Shown here one piece after another: positions 51,727-60,356 of a stretch of DNA of 64,000 nt. Under the pieces are notes generated by a model, which worked only from the letters and a program-made list of their open reading frames with translations, did not search any database and was not told the origin of the DNA. The position numbers and the translations under genes were made by a program. How positions within the stretch are numbered: position 1 is the first letter of the stretch; each line of letters opens with the position of its first letter. The DNA comes from a bacterium (lineage in GTDB: Bacteria > RBG-13-61-14 > DATKZS01). The DNA is taken from positions 96,001-160,000 of the forward strand of contig CAXXFL010000001.1 in NCBI GenBank assembly GCA_963674965.2. The letters are read 5' to 3'.

Positions 51727-52533
51727 TTATGGCTGCTTGAGCCGCCTGATGGTGAAATTGTCGTCGGGGAAGGTCACGTCGAACTTTATTTCCTCGAGCT
51801 CGAGCACGGTCTTATGGTTCGACGCCTTATTGGTCATCTCGGACTTGCTGATGACCCTTCTTTCCCCCTCGGCCCTGTACTTATAGACCTTCATTTCCTT
51901 GGCCATGTTTCCTTCCTTATCGTAGAACTCGGCCTTGATGGGCAGCCAGTAGTCGGTCCTTATCCAGGTCAGGACCTTGCTGTACTTGTAGTCCGGGTCG
52001 CGGGAGACGCTTTGCACCACGTGGCACTCGATGCCGGCGATGGTCTCGGTCCGTAGATAGGTATTCTCCGTGTCCTTGGGGTCCTTGACCTGGAAGTCGG
52101 TCAGGTCGAAGTCCGACCCCAGGAAAGTCTGGGAGCTGTTTTTTTCCTCGACGTTTATCTCCCTCACGTCGTCGGTGGGCGGAGGCAGGTAAACGAAAAT
52201 CTGCGAATCGCCCTTATCGCTGGCCACGAGCAGGTATCCGGTGTCCTTGATGTCGGGGGGGTCCATGAACCGGATGAGCACGTTGTCGCCCATGCGCTGG
52301 ATGCGAAGGGACCTGGTCTGGGTCCTGCCGGTCTTGTCCACCAGGGTCATTTTAATGGTCGAGTCCACGCTTTCCGAGTACTCGTTCTGCCTGACCTTGG
52401 CCATGATTTCGTCGCCCGTGGGCGGCTTGGCGGGCGGGTCGCCCTGGGAAAAAGCGGGAAAGGCAACCAAAAGGAGCGCGATGACAGATACGAAAAACGC
52501 GGCGCGCCATAATGCGCGGGAAATAGTTTCCAT
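51727..52533 (-). CDS. Outer-membrane lipoprotein-sorting protein (LolA-like)
   Basis: RFMDPPDIKDTGYL, FLGSDF, EFYDKEG, C-terminal FTIRRL. Confidence 0.8.
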   Translation of the reverse strand: METISRALWRAAFFVSVIALLLVAFPAFSQGDPPAKPPTGDEIMAKVRQNEYSESVDSTIKMTLVDKTGRTQTRSLRIQRMGDNVLIRFMDPPDIKDTGYLLVASDKGDSQIFVYLPPPTDDVREINVEEKNSSQTFLGSDFDLTDFQVKDPKDTENTYLRTETIAGIECHVVQSVSRDPDYKYSKVLTWIRTDYWLPIKAEFYDKEGNMAKEMKVYKYRAEGERRVISKSEMTNKASNHKTVLELEEIKFDVTFPDDNFTIRRLKQP

Positions 52534-52570
52534 GCCGTCCTCCTGTTTTATGAACCGACTATTGGCCGAA

Positions 52571-53107
52571 TCAGACTTTCTTGCTTCTCATTTTCAAAAG
52601 CTCGTCCACTTCCGCGAGCCTTTCCTTGAAGGTCTGGTTGCTTGGCTCCATCTTGATGGCGAGCTGAAGATTGATCTTCGCGCTTTTATAATCTTTATTC
52701 CTGATGCCCGTCTGGGCCATCTGATAATATTTTTTGCCCATGGGCGTCTGGCCCTCGTCCTCGGGCTTGTCGGCCTTGGCCAGCCGGGCGTAAAGCTTGG
52801 GGTTGTAGCGAATGTACTTTTGCCCGTCATCCCCCGAGATGGCCTTGGTATAGGTGGCCCTTTTGTCCTGGTCGGAGAGGACCTTGTAAGCCTCGCAGAC
52901 CCTTTTGAAAATCTTGTTGACCATTTCCACCAGCCGGGGGTCCTCGTTGTAGAACTTGTCGGGATGGAACCGCCTGGACTGGTTGAAGTAGGCCGTCTTA
53001 ATATCCTGGGTAAAGGCGCGCTTTCGCACCTTGAGTATCTGGTAGTAGTCCATCGCGTCTATGGTCTTGGCCAGCGTTATTATTTCCTGTTTTGTCTCGG
53101 CGTCCAT
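52571..53107 (-). CDS. J-domain (DnaJ-like) protein with a C-terminal TPR-like segment
   Basis: DYYQILKV...FHPDKF...AYKVLSD. Confidence 0.88.
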   Translation of the reverse strand: MDAETKQEIITLAKTIDAMDYYQILKVRKRAFTQDIKTAYFNQSRRFHPDKFYNEDPRLVEMVNKIFKRVCEAYKVLSDQDKRATYTKAISGDDGQKYIRYNPKLYARLAKADKPEDEGQTPMGKKYYQMAQTGIRNKDYKSAKINLQLAIKMEPSNQTFKERLAEVDELLKMRSKKV

Positions 53108-53169
53108 TTTCTATATAGTCCCCTAATTGGAAAGGATTTTCAGGTTATGCGATCGGCCGCCCAGCGACG

Positions 53170-54765
53170 TCACTCGAGCTGAAGCTCGGGCTTGTAGGTC
53201 TGGACCCCCTCGTCCTCGCCGGAGTGCCTTTCCTTCAGGGCCTGGATTTCCTCCTCCGAGAGTCCTCCGGAGACGTTGAGCTGGACCGAGCGGGCCTTGC
53301 CCGTCTCGCGGTCGCGGGCGGTCACGTTCACGATGCCGTTGGCGTCGATCTCGAAGGTGACCTCGATTTTGGCGTCGCCCTTGGGGGCGGCGGGGATATC
53401 GGTCAGCCGGAACTCTCCCAGAAGCTCGTTGTCCTTGCAGAACCTTTCCTCCCCCTGGAAAATCCGGATTTTGACCGCGGTCTGCCCGTCCCTGGTGGTG
53501 GTGAAAACCCTGCTCTGCTCCGTGGGTATGGGGGTGTTGCGCTCGATCAGGGTGTCCATCAGCCCGCCCGCCGTCTCGATGCCCAGCGACATGGGCGTCA
53601 CGTCCAAAAGCAGCGCCCCGGCGGTGGAGTCGACCAGGGCCGAGGCCTGGATGGCCGCTCCCAGACTGACCACCTCCTCGGGGTCGATGCCGTCCTTGGG
53701 CTCCTTGAAGAAGTAACTCTTGACCGCCTCCTTGACGATGGGCATGTTGGTCGGGCCGCCCACCAGTATGAGAGCGTCCACGTCCTCGACCGTCAGGTGC
53801 GCGTTCTGCAGGGCCTCGTCGCAGACCTTGAAGGTCCTCTGTATAAGGTCGTGGACCATCTGGCCGAAATAGTTGCGGTTCACCGTGAGCTCGAGGTCGG
53901 TGGGACTTCCGTTCACTTGGGTGATCCCGGGCAGGCTGATGGTGGTCTCCAGGTTTTCCACCAGGTCTATCTTGGCCCTTTCAGCGGAGTCCTTCAATCT
54001 CTGGAGCGCGCTCCGGTCGTGCCGGAGGTCGACGTCATGGTCGCGCATGAAGCGCTCGGCCATGTAGTCTATGAGCCGATCGTCGAAGTCGTCGCCGCCC
54101 AGGTACATGTCGCCGGCGGTGGAGATGACCTCGAAAACGTCGTCGCCTATCTCGAGGATCGAGATGTCGAAGGTGCCGCCGCCCAGGTCGTAAACGGCCA
54201 CCTTTTGCTGGAGGCCCTTGCCGAAGCCGTAAGCCAGGGCGGCGGCCGTGGGCTCGTTGATGATCCTGAGAACGTTGAGACCGGCGATGGTGCCCGCGTC
54301 CTTGGTGGCCTGGCGCTGGCCGTCGTTGAAGTTGGCCGGGACCGTGATCACGGCCTGGTCCACGTCATCCCCCAGGTGCTCCTCGGCGATCTTCTTCATC
54401 TCCATGAGGATCATGGCGCTGATCTCGGGACAAGAATACTGACGGTCGTCTATCTGAATCCGCACGCTCTGGTTGGGACCCTCCACGATCGAGTAAGTGG
54501 AAACGGCCATGGCCTTCTTGACCTCGGAACTGAAGAACTTGCGGCCGATCAGACGCTTCGAGGAATATACCGTGCGCTCGGGATTGTGGATGATATGCTT
54601 CTTTGCCTCGTTGCCGACCAGTATCTGGCCGTCATCCAGAAAAGAAACCACCGACGACTGAATCGGATCGCCGTCCGGCCCGTTGATTACCCTGGGCTTT
54701 CCATCCTCCACGTATGACACGCAGGACGTGCTCGTTCCCAGATCGATCCCGACTACTCTACCCAT
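53170..54765 (-). CDS. Hsp70/DnaK-family chaperone lacking most of the helical lid
   Basis: [40 protein letters not shown]; only 531 aa. Confidence 0.92.
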
Positions 54766-54987
54766 ATCCGCTCCTTTTGTACGGTCGATATGCAATAAAA
54801 TACTTCGCCCTAGGCTAACATGAAAACCATGGGCGAGGCAAATAAAATTTCATTGTAATCAGAAGGTTCAACCAAACCGGCCCCTTTTTCGCCCGCGCCG
54901 GGATACCGCCTAGAAGATAAATTCGGCGGACCGGCCGTCAAAGCGGGTCCGCCGAGAAATCCCCTCGATCGGCCTGGCGGAGGATTC

Positions 54988-55815
54988 CTAGAAATTGGCC
55001 CCAACGGTGAAGACCATTCCGTCGTTTACCGTGTTCAAATCCGCCTCGAACTCTCCTTCCTCGTCCTCGGCGTGTATGGCCGTGTTGATGAACCTGTATC
55101 CCAGCCCGAGATGGAGCCATTTATAATCGTAGGTAAGTCCGGCGTCAAGGTCTATATAGCTGGCCGAGTTGTCCTCATAGCCCGCGTACATGCCGCAGAC
55201 CTGGCCGCGAAAGCCGAAGCCGTAGGCCAGGTCCATGGCCCCTCCCAGGCCCAGGACCGGAACGGGCAGGGGGAGGGTCTCGTTCTCGTCCACGTGCCCG
55301 CCCGTCACGTCCTCGGTGCCCTCGTATCCGGCCTCGATTATATATAACTGGGTACCCCAGACCAGCCCGAGTCTTCCCCTGTCCTTGTTCAGGAAGTCCC
55401 ACTCGTCCAGTATGGAAATACGGTCCACGGCGTAGGTGGTGCGAAGGGGCGCGTCAGCCGTCAACTCGTACCCCCCGAACTCGATGGTCCGGCTAAGGAG
55501 GTTCGTGCCGCTGTAGTCGACATGGTAGTACCCCAGGGACAGCCTGTGGTTGGGAAGGGTCTTAAACCAGGCCTGGACCTCGAAAACGTCCTGGGGCGAA
55601 TCGAGACCCAGGTCGTCCTCCATGTCCAGCTTGTCGCCGATGACGACGCCCGTGTCCCCCACCTGGTCAACGTCGCGAACCTCGGCGTCGCCCGAGAAAC
55701 CAGCTATCCAGTAATTGACACTGATCCCGCCTTTATACTCGTCCTCCGCGGCCGAGGCCCGCGAGCAAGCTATCATGGCGACCATGACGGCCATCCAGAT
55801 AAACGCCCTTTTCAT
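54988..55815 (-). CDS. Outer-membrane beta-barrel protein
   Basis: Signal peptide, amphipathic strands, LPVPVLG, GYR, terminal Phe. Confidence 0.7.
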   Translation of the reverse strand: MKRAFIWMAVMVAMIACSRASAAEDEYKGGISVNYWIAGFSGDAEVRDVDQVGDTGVVIGDKLDMEDDLGLDSPQDVFEVQAWFKTLPNHRLSLGYYHVDYSGTNLLSRTIEFGGYELTADAPLRTTYAVDRISILDEWDFLNKDRGRLGLVWGTQLYIIEAGYEGTEDVTGGHVDENETLPLPVPVLGLGGAMDLAYGFGFRGQVCGMYAGYEDNSASYIDLDAGLTYDYKWLHLGLGYRFINTAIHAEDEEGEFEADLNTVNDGMVFTVGANF

Positions 55816-55929: not shown

Positions 55930-57423
55930 CTAGAAGTACACCGGGATGCAGGTGCAGATGGTGTCGCAAGAGCACCCTATACCGCCGATGGGCCCGCCGA
56001 AGCCCGGGAACGTCGGCGTGTCCGTGCCGGTAAAGGGCTCGATATAAGTGCCCGGTATGCAGTCGCAGGTACACTTGACGCCGGCCGGAAGCTCCACGTC
56101 GCAGGGCACGGTGTAATTTATGGTCTTGCCGCCCTTGGTCGCGTACTTGAACTGCCGGGCCTTGTTCTCGGGGCGGTTGGCCTGGAGATCGATCAGGCAG
56201 CTCGCCATTTCCTCGCCGCTCTCGTCCCAAACCATAATCGTTCCGTCCCACATGCCCGAGACGATGGTCTTGCCGTCCGGGCTCACGGCGATGCTTTTGA
56301 CCGTGTTGATGTCGCCGTGGAATTTCTTGAGCAGCGCGCCCGAGGAGGCGTCCCATATTTTGACGGCCTTGTCGTTGCCGCCGGAGACGATGCTTTTCCC
56401 GTCGGGCAAGAAGGCTATCGCCGTGACCCATCCCTTGTGGGCCTCGATGGTCTTGGCTTTCTGGGGGGTGGCGATTTTCCTGATCTTGACAATGCCCTCC
56501 CTGTCGGCCGAGGCCAAAAGCTGGTCGTCGGCGCTCAGGGCCACCGAGGTCACGGGCTCGCGATGGACCTTGATATCGAGCGAGTGTCCTCCCTTCTCGA
56601 TGCCCCAGAGCTTGACGGTCATGTCGTCCGAGCCCGAGGCCAGGGTCTTGCCGTCGGCGCTGAAGGTTACCGTGTTGACGTGGCCCGCGTGTCCCTCCAG
56701 CGTTTGAATAAGGGCCCCGGCCTTTACGTCCCAGAGCTTGATGGTCCCGTCAAAGGAGCCCGAGGCGGCTATCCTGCCGCCGGGATTGACCGCCACCGAG
56801 CGCACGTAATTGACGTGCCCCTCCATCGTCTTCAGTTCTTTTCCGGTTTTGGCGCTCCAGGTTTTGACCAGGTTGTCGAACCCTCCGGACACGATCGTAC
56901 TTGCGTCCGGCGTGAAGCATACCGAGGCCACAATATCCGAGTGGGCCTTCTCGATTTTTTTAATCAGCTTGCCCTTGGCCACGTCCCAGATTTTTATCAC
57001 CTTGTCCTTGCTCGAGGTCACCAGTTTCGAGCCGTCGCGGCTCAAGGCCACGCAGGTGATGGTGTCCACGTGGGCCAGGATGGGACTGCACTTGCCGGTG
57101 TTTTCGATCTCGGCTTTTTCCTCGTCCTTGACCTCGGTGGGAGTCAGGGACACCGGCTCGCCGGGCTTTGCCGACGAGGTGGACCCGTCTTCCGACCCCG
57201 GCCCGCCCTTGCCGATGGGCTGGGGCTTTTTCCTCCCGCCGGGCTTTTCCTTGCACGAGTAGGCGGCGGCGGCGGCGAAAAGAGAGCCGGCCACCAGGAA
57301 ACCCCGGCGACCCGACCGCCAATTCGCGGAGAGGTCTTTTAGCTCGTATACGCGCGGTTCCTCCGACCTCCCGTCCTCGAGGCGTTTTTCCAGAATGAAC
57401 CTTGGTCTTTTCAAGTCCGTCAT
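55930..57423 (-). CDS. Tat-lipoprotein WD40 (7-blade) protein with a Cys-rich C-terminal tail
   Basis: SGRRGFL...AAAYSC signal; seven GH...WD-type repeats; tail CTCDC...CSCDTICTC. Confidence 0.85.
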   Translation of the reverse strand: MTDLKRPRFILEKRLEDGRSEEPRVYELKDLSANWRSGRRGFLVAGSLFAAAAAYSCKEKPGGRKKPQPIGKGGPGSEDGSTSSAKPGEPVSLTPTEVKDEEKAEIENTGKCSPILAHVDTITCVALSRDGSKLVTSSKDKVIKIWDVAKGKLIKKIEKAHSDIVASVCFTPDASTIVSGGFDNLVKTWSAKTGKELKTMEGHVNYVRSVAVNPGGRIAASGSFDGTIKLWDVKAGALIQTLEGHAGHVNTVTFSADGKTLASGSDDMTVKLWGIEKGGHSLDIKVHREPVTSVALSADDQLLASADREGIVKIRKIATPQKAKTIEAHKGWVTAIAFLPDGKSIVSGGNDKAVKIWDASSGALLKKFHGDINTVKSIAVSPDGKTIVSGMWDGTIMVWDESGEEMASCLIDLQANRPENKARQFKYATKGGKTINYTVPCDVELPAGVKCTCDCIPGTYIEPFTGTDTPTFPGFGGPIGGIGCSCDTICTCIPVYF

Positions 57424-57437
57424 GCTTGGCGCTCCTT

Positions 57438-58772
57438 TTAAGACCCGCCCGGAAGGCTTCCTCTCCAGACGCCTCCCCCGGACGAGATGTATTTCAATAA
57501 CAAATACTTGGTCAACTCGCGGTTAACGCGGCACCTGGGCGTCGGCTTGAACTTGTCAGGCCCGGACTCGGAAAAGGTCTTGGCCATGCAATCGCCGGCG
57601 CAGTGCCACTTGCAAAAGCATTCCCTACAATACTCTAATCGCTCGGGCGCTCGCGAGTCAAGTAGGGACCGCAATTTATTTTTATCCAGTACCGGACGGC
57701 CGCTCTCATCGATCCTTCCGAAGAAAAAATGGCGGGCCAGGGGATGGCGCGAACTGTAGACCTCGAAGCAGGCGGTCAACTCGCCCCGCGGCGTCACCAC
57801 CAGGGATTCCGATCCCGCCCGGCAGAAGCGGCCCGAGGTTATCTCGGGACGGGCGCCCGAGTAGACAAGAGCCACGCCCCGCCGGAGGCAGAGGTCGTGG
57901 GCCGACTTGAATTCCTCGATGAAACGGTCGAGGCTTTCCTCGCCCATCCACTCGCCGCCACCCCTTCCCTGGGGAAAAACGGGCTCGACCTGGATTTTCC
58001 TGGGGCCGGCGTTGTCCAGGACAAACTTTACGCTCGAGGCGAACTCGGGCATGGATATCTCGTCCGCCGTGATCCTGACGCCGTAATGCAGCCCTTTGCG
58101 GTCGAAGGTCTCGATGGTCTTCATCACCGCCTGGAAGGAACCGCCGCCCGACCGGGAGGGTCTTTGCCGGTCCTGGATATGGGCTGGCCCGTCCAGGGAA
58201 AGGCTCACTCCGTCCAGGTTCTCGGCTATCCACTCGGCTTTTTCCCTCCCATAAACCCCGTTGGTGGCCATGGACACGAGGGAGGGCAGGGCCTTTTCCC
58301 GGACGCGGGAGACGGCGGCCCGCATGGTTTCCCAGTTCATGGTGGGCTCGCCGCCGCCGTGGAAGGCCAGCTCGAAATGGCTCGAGAAGCGGCTTTGGGC
58401 CGAGTCGTGGGCGAAGTCCACCGCCGCCAGGGCGAGTTTGGCGCCCATGTCCTCGGGCGGCTCCTCGCCCGAGGAAGCGTAGCAGTAGGCGCAACTGAGG
58501 TTACAGCGGTTGGTAAGGAAGAGGGTGGCCCCCATCGGCAGGTAGTTGTCCCCGGGCTCGGGCCGGGCAGGAGGGGGGTCCGGCCGCAGGAAACCGATCT
58601 CCTCGAGGAAGGACGAGGCTTTCGACCCGTCGCCCTTTCCTCCCTTTTCGAGAAGCTCGGCCGTCAGGTTGGCCATGGCCCGGTTGCCGACGAAAGCCGT
58701 CCTGATCAGGGGCCGATACAAGATCAGCTTTTCCTCGAAGGGTATCTCGAATATCTCCGGAAGGGAAGCCAT
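57438..58772 (-). CDS. Radical SAM/SPASM domain protein
   Basis: CNLSCAYC, FHGGGEP, SLDG; SPASM cysteines CRAG...C...CRECFCKWHCAGDC...C. Confidence 0.92.
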   Translation of the reverse strand: MASLPEIFEIPFEEKLILYRPLIRTAFVGNRAMANLTAELLEKGGKGDGSKASSFLEEIGFLRPDPPPARPEPGDNYLPMGATLFLTNRCNLSCAYCYASSGEEPPEDMGAKLALAAVDFAHDSAQSRFSSHFELAFHGGGEPTMNWETMRAAVSRVREKALPSLVSMATNGVYGREKAEWIAENLDGVSLSLDGPAHIQDRQRPSRSGGGSFQAVMKTIETFDRKGLHYGVRITADEISMPEFASSVKFVLDNAGPRKIQVEPVFPQGRGGGEWMGEESLDRFIEEFKSAHDLCLRRGVALVYSGARPEITSGRFCRAGSESLVVTPRGELTACFEVYSSRHPLARHFFFGRIDESGRPVLDKNKLRSLLDSRAPERLEYCRECFCKWHCAGDCMAKTFSESGPDKFKPTPRCRVNRELTKYLLLKYISSGGGVWRGSLPGGS

Positions 58773-59060
58773 GCAAGTCTCTCTTATATTTATACGCTCG
58801 AAAGGATATAAACTTCTTTTCCCGAGAGTATACACCGAACGGTCGGGCGGGTTCCAATCCGGGCGGGCGCCGGCGTCGGACTTCCGCCGCCCGGGGTCCA
58901 AAAGACGCCTCGCGAAACGTTATCCGGCGCCGCTTGCCCGGGAAGTATCCCGGTGGTATAAGCGTAAAATCGCGTGGCCCGGGCTCTTTTCGCCGGGCCA
59001 GGGGCCGTGTCAAAAGGACGGGGCAGTTTTACCGTCAGTCGTGACCGATGGAGCGAGAGC

Positions 59061-60356
59061 ATGAAAAGCAAGGCGGCAAGGACCTACCTGGCGGCGGTTT
59101 TCTTCGCGGCGATTTTTCTTTCGGGCGCTACATTCGACATGTACGAGGCCATGGACCGGATATGGGAATGGAAGAAGCCCGACCCATATCCATATCCGCT
59201 GGAGGAGTTGGACGCCGAGACCCTTTCAGTCCTCCTGGACGCGGGCAACCTCCAGTGGTACGAGCCGCGTCCGGAAAAAGGCCAGTGGGACGCCGCGGTG
59301 GGAATGAAGGTCCACGCCGCTCCTCAAACCGTCTGGAGCGTAATCACGGACTACGAGGCGCCCTGCCGGATAATGAGCAAGACCTTCCTCGAGTGCAAGA
59401 GCGAGCGGGTATCCGACGACAAGGTTAAAAACGAATACAAAATTATCACCCGGGTCCTCGAGTTCGGCTCGACCTTCGACATGATCGACGAGGTCACGGA
59501 GAAGCCCCCCTATTTCCAGCGGATCGAGACGGTCGAGGGGGGCCTCGAGGGAAGAGTGGTGACCATTACCCTCATTCCCGCCGACGGGGGAAAGACGACC
59601 CTGGCCTTCATGCGCTACTACGCCTCGATGAGGTCCCTGGGCCTGGCCATGAGGGCCGTGCTGGCGGTGGTCCCCGCCGCCGAGTGGCCGGTGGCGGCCG
59701 CCAGCGCCAATTATCACCTCACCACCCACGGCATGGAAGCCGAGCGGATCGAGGGCTATCGGCGCCCGGAAAAGCCGGGCGATTTAAAGCACGACAAGCT
59801 TGACATGGAAACCCTGGCCCGCCTCGCCCGGTTCAACGCCGGCCTTATTCGCGAAACCCCGGAGGGAAAGACCGTCGACGGGCTGGCCTACGCCTTTATC
59901 GACGCTCCCCCCGGAGTCGTGTACGGTATCCTCGAGGACCTGGAGCATTACGACGAGAACCTCCAAAACCAGAAAACAGCGGTGGAAAAACGGGAGGGGA
60001 ACAAGGTATGGGTCACGCAGAAAATAACCTCGCAGTCGGTCCTGGTTTTCACCTTCTCCTACGAGATGCACGCCCTTTATCAGCTCGACCCGCCATACCA
60101 CGTCTCCTACCGGGCCATTGACGGGACCTACGAGGGAAGCACGGGAGACTTCAGGATCGTTCCCCTCGACGGCGGCGAGCGCTGCGCGCTTTTCTGCCAA
60201 ATAGGGATAAACTTCGAGCGCGACTCCGCCCTTACCACGAGGATCATCAGGTCGGGCGATTATCCTTTCAGCACCGTGATGGACCTGATAGCCGCGAGGA
60301 CCTACTTGAATAGCATTAAACCCCTGGCGGAAAAAAGGGCCAGGGAAGGCGGCTGA
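59061..60356 (+). CDS. Exported protein with tandem SRPBCC/START-like domains
   Basis: Signal peptide; two repeats, VHAAPQTVWSVITDYE and IDAPPGVVYGILEDLE. Confidence 0.65.
   Translation: MKSKAARTYLAAVFFAAIFLSGATFDMYEAMDRIWEWKKPDPYPYPLEELDAETLSVLLDAGNLQWYEPRPEKGQWDAAVGMKVHAAPQTVWSVITDYEAPCRIMSKTFLECKSERVSDDKVKNEYKIITRVLEFGSTFDMIDEVTEKPPYFQRIETVEGGLEGRVVTITLIPADGGKTTLAFMRYYASMRSLGLAMRAVLAVVPAAEWPVAAASANYHLTTHGMEAERIEGYRRPEKPGDLKHDKLDMETLARLARFNAGLIRETPEGKTVDGLAYAFIDAPPGVVYGILEDLEHYDENLQNQKTAVEKREGNKVWVTQKITSQSVLVFTFSYEMHALYQLDPPYHVSYRAIDGTYEGSTGDFRIVPLDGGERCALFCQIGINFERDSALTTRIIRSGDYPFSTVMDLIAARTYLNSIKPLAEKRAREGG

Follow-up and report, generated by a model that had tools for sequence, protein, structure and literature searches.

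The window, a 64,000-nucleotide stretch of contig CAXXFL010000001.1 (assembly GCA_963674965.2, positions 96,001 to 160,000) from a bacterium of the GTDB lineage RBG-13-61-14, carries two adjacent genes on its minus strand. The first encodes a radical S-adenosylmethionine (SAM)/SPASM enzyme of 444 residues, named here rSAM-A or P0002 (57438–58772 including the stop codon; ATG at 58772, TAA at 57440–57438). The second, downstream of it, encodes a 497-residue WD40 propeller protein with a Cys-rich tail, P0001 (55930–57423 including the stop codon; ATG at 57423, stop at 55930–55932). All coordinates refer to the window, on the minus strand unless stated otherwise. A spacer of 14 bases (57424–57437) containing an AAGGAG ribosome-binding site separates the two genes, and the start codons of both are consistent with the N-termini of their orthologues. 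This gene order and spacing agree with the initial annotation, as does the lack of a small precursor gene: no Cys-rich small open reading frame (ORF) was found between 53000 and 62000 on either strand, the remaining CxC-containing ORFs of that region being off-frame products of GC-rich coding DNA. The gene pair is real and well linked. On balance, we consider it probable that the radical SAM/SPASM maturase acts on the Cys-rich C-terminal tail of the full-length propeller protein, which would then be exported by the twin-arginine translocation (Tat) route; the enzyme–substrate relation, the chemistry, its timing and the export route are inferred from the gene pair, its domains, their conservation and their linkage.

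A 223-letter contig from one metatranscriptome library covers the junction of both genes (57387–57609) with 3 differences, and a second contig of the same library spans 57955–58164. The run consists of contigs and covers 6 of 30 bins, those without coverage carrying no information. Metatranscriptome libraries can contain DNA. The junction contig weakly suggests that P0002 and P0001 are transcribed together in a close relative.

P0002 has the hallmarks of a radical SAM enzyme with auxiliary clusters. Pfam recognizes its Radical_SAM domain (E 6.1e-14), and its SPASM domain scores 21.3 bits, slightly below the cut-off of 21.5. The CX3CX2C motif of the radical SAM cluster (C90, C94 and C97; 58482–58505) is invariant in 20 orthologues, and so are the seven auxiliary-cluster cysteines of the SPASM region (C317, C335, C382, C385, C391, C395 and C414; 57531–57824) together with G330; this region aligns with the SPASM part of Protein Data Bank (PDB) entry 5wgg. 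With its cluster cysteines all kept, P0002 looks competent as far as its sequence tells. An AlphaFold2 model built from the 20 orthologues (mean predicted local distance difference test score, pLDDT, of 87) displays a strand–strand–strand–helix–helix arrangement at residues 8–58 (58599–58751). This N-terminal domain, in which Y19, P21 and N30 are invariant across the 20 orthologues, is predicted to resemble the recognition element (RRE) of enzymes that mature ribosomally synthesized and post-translationally modified peptides (RiPPs).

The closest solved structure by sequence is 5wgg/5why (E 6.4e-26), deposited under the title ‘Thioether Bond Formation in the Biosynthesis of Sactipeptides’. In a Foldseek search the whole P0002 chain was aligned to the same entries (5why_B, E 3.3e-21, template-modelling score 0.68, 451–462 columns), followed by structures of the anaerobic sulfatase maturase anSME (4k37, E 2.1e-15). 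The best NCBIfam matches are the SCIFF maturase TIGR03974 (115 bits, cut-off 425), PapB NF047865 (110.5 bits, cut-off 340) and QhpD TIGR03906 (89.4 bits, cut-off 453); the anaerobic sulfatase maturase TIGR03942 scores 70.2 bits (cut-off 349), and cyclophane-forming maturases are found among the weaker matches. Relatives of the enzyme are numerous (at least 864 at E≤1e-40), and the names of the 120 listed are confined to ‘uncharacterized protein’, ‘radical SAM protein’ and one uninformative MGnify label.

The presumed substrate, P0001, is composed of several successive parts. Its first 38 residues (57310–57423) form a conserved N-region, designated type 1 (PRFxL...DG...EP), in which 17 orthologues share P7, F9 and L11 without exception and G18 almost without exception. 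This is the long region of about 37 residues before the twin arginine that had been pointed out in the initial annotation. It is followed by an RRGFL motif, a hydrophobic stretch and Cys57 (57253–57309), which together resemble a Tat signal or an anchor. Both R39 and R40 are invariant in the 17 type-1 N-regions; across 23 full-length relatives R39 never varies, and R40 and F42 hardly vary. The genome encodes TatC. A low-complexity linker rich in K, P, G, E and S (residues 58–111; 57091–57252), modelled with pLDDT 34–45 and devoid of secondary structure, leads to the propeller (residues 112–415; 56179–57090). Pfam WD40 matches in seven stretches, together with 28 strands between residues 122 and 411 that form seven blades in the AlphaFold2 model (pLDDT >90), bear out the seven blades given in the initial annotation.

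The tail comprises about 90 residues, whose letters are those first reported, and shows two groups of CxC motifs with four cysteines each, both groups ending in C-[IV]-P. Its best-conserved part is a head of about 50 residues ending in the consensus YTLPCGSPIPAGAVCTCNCVPG. This tail head (residues 405–458; 56050–56211) carries the family signature CLxDL...Y...YTxPC....PAG..CxC[ND]C[IV]PG, obtained from a profile of 69 heads in which positions P42, G44, C47, C49 and C51 are invariant. The P0001 head matches the 54-position profile with an E-value of 1.9e-20, P0001 being itself one of the 69 profile sequences; by this measure of conservation the tail is more than chance. The protein closes with a CxC[ND]xxCxC-[IV]P motif (residues 483–497; 55933–55977). 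The model assigns the tail no confident fold (pLDDT <50), an observation that fits a peptide-like substrate and proves nothing, and the number of CxC repeats differs among relatives. Together with the invariant cysteines, these two features resemble those of a peptide substrate. A word-indexed search with residues 405–497 matched P0001 alone, no second copy of the tail was found in the genome, and the ESM Atlas gave no usable match.

The association of enzyme and tail extends well beyond the window. A metagenome scan with the tail head (five-row alignment query) returned 117 relatives, from which 79 loci with 90 tail-bearing ORFs were kept; 46 of the 79 loci, which are metagenome contigs of unknown relatedness so that their counts are not independent events, carry a homologue of P0002 (type A) or of the companion radical SAM types B and C. 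Because many contigs are short, the count was restricted to loci with enough flank on both sides, where an enzyme is present in 24 of 27 loci (at least 1.5 kb), 15 of 16 (at least 3 kb) and 12 of 13 (at least 5 kb), two of the last 12 being a fused enzyme–tail form. In 27 of the 46 loci the nearest enzyme gene overlaps the tail-gene ORF, when ORFs are measured between stop codons; in 8 further loci it is no more than 100 bases away. With four radical SAM relatives in 6.5 Mb, a rough estimate puts one of them in about 1% of 16-kb stretches by chance.

Named genomes display the same association. The six best P0002 orthologues belong to five groups (Zipacnadia, Synergistia, Syntrophorhabdaceae, Vulcanimicrobiota, with two, and Planctomycetaceae). 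A tail-bearing WD40 protein is encoded beside or near the orthologous enzyme in three of these loci (L013, L014 and L015) and on a different contig of the same genome in two others (L012 and L016); the sixth, the planctomycete L031, has a free CxC peptide in its stead. In a set of 101 genomes, made up of that of the window and 100 relatives, 2 have the tail head, and they are the two best of the 4 with an enzyme match at E≤1e-30. The co-occurrence of the CxC tail with this enzyme clade, proposed in the initial annotation as a check, is thus seen both in the 12 of 13 well-flanked loci and beside tails in other phyla. Since none of the window's other neighbour genes recurs in 124 other loci, the enzyme and the tail protein are the sole conserved pair. 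Judged by these sequence counts, the pairing is not chance.

Because the enzyme gene adjoins that of a tail protein from a widespread family, the most likely role of the tail is that of a protein-sized substrate for a peptide-modifying enzyme. In the mechanism that we propose, P0002 would dock through its RRE-like N-terminal domain onto a conserved stretch of the substrate, for which there are two candidates, the 38-residue N-region that precedes the twin arginine and the conserved segment immediately ahead of the Cys core. The radical SAM cluster and two auxiliary clusters would then modify tail cysteines in the cytoplasm. The products would most likely be Cys-to-carbon thioether cross-links, with the Asn or Asp of CxC[ND] as possible acceptors; thioethers are favoured because the three nearest characterised relatives of P0002 form them. 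Finally, the folded and modified protein would cross the membrane by the Tat route, and its stapled tail would sit in the envelope.

The recognition site may be approached through structure prediction of a complex between the enzyme and a 43-residue N-region, which reached a median score of 0.48 (runs 0.43, 0.63 and 0.48) against 0.01 for the best of three controls. In calibration, 58 of 80 solved complexes reached the mark, as did 2 of 110 mismatched pairs; with scores of 0.60 or below, only 7 of the 80 solved complexes did so, along with both passing mismatches. The runs share at least 48% of their contacts, with a partner pLDDT of at least 39. The predicted complex weakly supports the N-region as a leader bound by the enzyme, the role suggested for it in the initial annotation, but the conserved stretch before the Cys core is an equally good candidate. 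A RiPP-type leader made of the 38 residues upstream of the export signal, with its modified core 400 residues away at the C-terminus, strikes us as doubtful. As the N- and C-terminal ends of a seven-bladed propeller normally come together within a single blade, an enzyme could hold such a leader and still reach the tail of a folded 50-kDa protein. If the leader does precede the signal, the stapled product would leave by the Tat route, removal of the signal would also remove the leader, and a dedicated leader protease would be unnecessary.

Several observations weigh against maturation of the tail by P0002, and they concern the enzyme, the substrate and the linkage in turn. P0002 misses every NCBIfam equivalog cut-off (best 115 bits versus 425), so its reaction cannot be read from family membership. 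The RRE, whose detection had been proposed as a check, appears as an RRE-like fold in the AlphaFold2 model, within a chain that aligns over its whole length with 5why/5wgg, but the Pfam PqqD model matches none of the 20 enzyme orthologues at E≤1; the assignment is therefore a matter of the structural model. The missed cut-offs leave some room for another chemistry on the same tail, such as oxidation of Cys to formylglycine, carbon–carbon links of the cyclophane type, epimerisation or another radical reaction. The second-best structural matches being anSME, an enzyme that acts on whole exported proteins, and the cyclophane-forming maturases among the weaker family matches point the same way. 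However, all three best-scoring characterised relatives make thioethers, the tail's invariant residues are cysteines, and the sulfatase motif C/S-x-P/A-x-R is absent from the P0001 tail; we regard such a reaction as improbable.

On the substrate side, P0001 has Asp in its tail where most relatives carry Asn, so that an acceptor at this position would have to tolerate both. The Tat model TIGR01409 does not match P0001 at E≤1; its cut-off is reached by the N-termini of 3 of 8 relatives (L013, L056 and L066). In addition, the A-Y-S-C sequence of P0001 does not fit the usual lipobox consensus, [LVI][ASTVI][GAS]C, and the Cys after the hydrophobic stretch is not conserved, being often absent in relatives. 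For these three reasons the ‘Tat-lipoprotein’ of the initial annotation is unverified: the RRGFL motif, the hydrophobic stretch and Cys57 are indeed present, but the lipoprotein label is not supported by the sequences of P0001 and its family.

Runs of CxC also resemble metal binders of the metallothionein type. The tail might accordingly be a metallothionein- or iron–sulfur-type module that is loaded with metal or a cluster in the cytoplasm, the radical SAM protein serving as a cofactor maturase or insertase. The dense CxC motifs in two four-Cys groups, each with its C-[IV]-P ending, would suit such a module, and the repeat number varies as it does in metallothioneins. Cytoplasmic loading would moreover explain the Tat route, as Tat substrates often bear cofactors. 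Against it, P0002 is built like RiPP maturases, with a predicted RRE-like domain and SPASM; tails at other loci occur with as many as four such enzymes and with a peptide chaperone of the PqqD type; and tails range from two CxC groups to about twenty repeats, which does not suggest one defined cluster site. We give this explanation little credence.

As for the linkage, 33 of the 79 loci show no visible enzyme. In thirty of these the flank is shorter than 1.5 kb on one side or both, and the others are L062, L100 and L107. No radical SAM gene was found within 7 kb on both sides of the tail gene of L107, or in the shorter flanks of L062 and L100. Conversely, one genome (G085) has an enzyme 35% identical to P0002 and no tail. 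The cases of L107 and G085 would suit a functionless adjacency, in which the enzyme serves some other protein or a small peptide that escaped notice, while the tail forms disulfides in the envelope. This is very improbable given the pairing in 12 of 13 well-flanked loci and in several phyla, the lack of a Cys-rich small ORF over 53–62 kb and the absence of recurrence of the other neighbours in 124 loci. Modification of the tail by P0002, probably through thioethers, is thus the reading that we retain.

The tail-bearing WD40 proteins are, as far as sequence clusters indicate, a widespread family with hundreds of clusters in uncultured bacteria of several phyla. Searched against 1.84 billion representative proteins, the tail-head profile finds 731 at E≤1e-3, of which 450 remain at E≤1e-10. 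In nine matches that were fetched, the shortest three (88, 98 and 113 residues) look like fragments of propeller proteins and the longest two have several propellers. Ten clusters of the tail family include one named ‘WD40 repeat protein’, one ‘hypothetical protein’ and eight without a name. Neither Pfam nor NCBIfam holds a model of the tail, and scans of both with the tails, the N-region and a free planctomycete peptide (see below) returned no match. No paper was found that ties a radical SAM/SPASM enzyme to a WD40 or propeller protein. The text of a survey of prokaryotic WD40 proteins (PMC5587647) makes no mention of the pairing and has no occurrence of radical, twin-arginine, signal peptide, cysteine, lipoprotein or periplasm.

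Sorting of 92 distinct tail proteins by their N-region distinguishes two main forms. In type 1 (19 proteins), to which P0001 belongs, the protein starts a few residues ahead of PRFxL...DG...EP; the tail ends in CxC[ND]xxCxC-[IV]P in 10 of the 19 and in this motif plus an extension of about 110 residues in 5, and 16 of the 19 lie in loci with enzyme type A only. In type 2 (41 proteins), an EPEVYAIxRGxSGW-like stretch precedes the twin arginine, the tail ends in an HYWYPN-like sequence (34 of 41) or in long GCGCVSD-type repeats (6 of 41), and the genes are accompanied by mixtures of enzyme types A, B and C, often in tandem arrays. N-region type, tail ending and enzyme set thus appear to go together, which shared descent could explain as well. 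The pair of the window shares with the HYWYPN-tailed, multi-enzyme form the tail head, the WD40 propeller, the twin arginine and the enzyme clade, and differs from it by its single enzyme (up to four in type 2), its PRFxL N-region and its CxC-[IV]P ending in place of HYWYPN. Judged by its gene content, it is the minimal form: two genes, a single enzyme, an N-region of the PRFxL type and a tail that closes with CxCxxxCxC-IP.

The extension of about 110 residues found after the tail of several type-1 relatives starts with CQAHRL.H.DP (L056, L059, L062, L072, L091/L094/L095 and L129; proteins P0003, P0005 and P0024), and its copy in L056 has no Pfam match. A Peptidase_S74 intramolecular-chaperone domain follows the Cys tail in L111 (6771–8570 and 8613–10325; Pfam 2.9e-14) and, judged by eye only, in proteins P0040 and P0012. 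This domain is known from trimeric phage fibres, and by analogy it hints that such tails may form oligomeric stalks that are cut free. In other tails (L013/L015/L113, L109 and L124), Tyr/Thr-rich or PVYY-type repeats, some of them free of Cys, stand past the head instead of CxC. A further subgroup (L100, L101, L107, L110, L116, L120, L128 and L131) lacks the HYWYPN ending and carries as many as about twenty GCGCVSDTG-like repeats; the L131 tail gene has a radical SAM gene about 1.9 kb upstream. Tail genes also occur in tandem, with two to four copies in L082, L084, L097, L099, L106 and L117, and L069 (1897–9990) contains six head-to-tail WD40 genes, five of which fit the strict tail-head motif.

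The fused form is a single frame in which about 270 N-terminal residues of the enzyme (50% identity to P0002) run directly into the last WD40 blades and the Cys tail, with no SPASM region, N-region or RR motif. It is found in L009 (955–2319; genome G003, of the same family as the window genome) and in L078 and L079 (6909–8285). The metagenome contigs L078 and L079 carry the identical frame, and they may be the source of G003, so they are not independent. From its sequence, the fused frame looks like a deletion remnant of the two-gene unit. A planctomycete locus, L031 (4711–9569), encodes a PqqD protein with a Tat motif (Pfam PqqD, 9.5e-9), three tandem radical SAM genes and, in place of the tail protein, a free 101-residue peptide with similar CxC motifs and no signal. 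Compared as profiles, this peptide matched neither the N-region (probability 0.4%, E 0.17) nor the tail head (probability 1.8%, E 0.028) significantly, so that a striking visual resemblance between its leader and the P0001 N-region is not supported.

The pair is flanked in the window by genes of other kinds. Downstream on the same strand (51727–55815) lie four genes. The first encodes a barrel-like protein of 275 residues that begins with a signal-like sequence, ends in Phe and is matched by no Pfam model; the others encode a short Hsp70 paralogue (541 residues), a DnaJ-domain protein and a LolA-like protein. A divergent gene on the plus strand (58974–60356) encodes a 460-residue Polyketide_cyc (SRPBCC) protein and starts about 200 bases from the start of the enzyme gene. 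Scanning of six neighbours gave OmpA, Polyketide_cyc, HSP70, DnaJ, LolA_like and RecO domains, one neighbour having no match. The barrel-like, Hsp70, DnaJ and LolA-like genes downstream and the SRPBCC and OmpA genes upstream were considered as members of the system and set aside, with no match in the 124 other loci.

Radical SAM/SPASM maturases are known mostly for their action on short peptides, and the likely substrate here is the tail of a whole exported protein. If this tail is cross-linked, RiPP-type chemistry would extend to protein-sized substrates, CxC[ND] would be a new cross-link motif and peptide maturation would be tied to Tat export. The two-gene form of the window is the simplest version of the system.

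Three groups of known maturases may be compared with P0002. anSME (PDB 4k36–4k39), a SPASM enzyme that is not known to carry an RRE domain, acts on a Cys of an entire protein ahead of its export. It is the second-best structural match of P0002, yet P0002 scores only 70 bits against the corresponding cut-off of 349, and the sulfatase motif is missing from the P0001 tail. QhpD, also a radical SAM/SPASM enzyme, makes thioethers from Cys to Asp or Glu in a protein subunit, QhpC (gamma), that is later periplasmic. It is among the NCBIfam matches of P0002, with an alignment that enters the N-terminal domain (query residues 35–221). However, the score is far from the cut-off (89.4 bits versus 453), no dehydrogenase, protease or exporter family was found among the six neighbours scanned, and the target in the present system would be a tail on a WD40 propeller and not a small catalytic subunit.

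By both sequence and structure, the best match is SCIFF/ranthipeptide maturation (CteB/CteA, 5wgg/5why; ScfB; PapB). P0002 and the SCIFF maturases have in common a radical SAM core, a seven-Cys SPASM region, a Cys-rich target and, as far as the model of P0002 shows, an N-terminal RRE-like domain. Nevertheless, P0002 remains far below the SCIFF and PapB cut-offs (115 versus 425 and 110.5 versus 340). No short SCIFF precursor stands beside it, the 53–62 kb region having no Cys-rich small ORF and the neighbouring gene encoding the 497-residue protein. SCIFF peptides have about 45 residues, whereas the tail that P0002 presumably modifies belongs to a 497-residue exported propeller protein; its cysteines follow a CxC[ND] pattern that differs from that of SCIFF, and the candidate leader lies ahead of an export signal. 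The system would be a novel version of radical SAM/SPASM maturation, one whose substrate is exported and of protein size.

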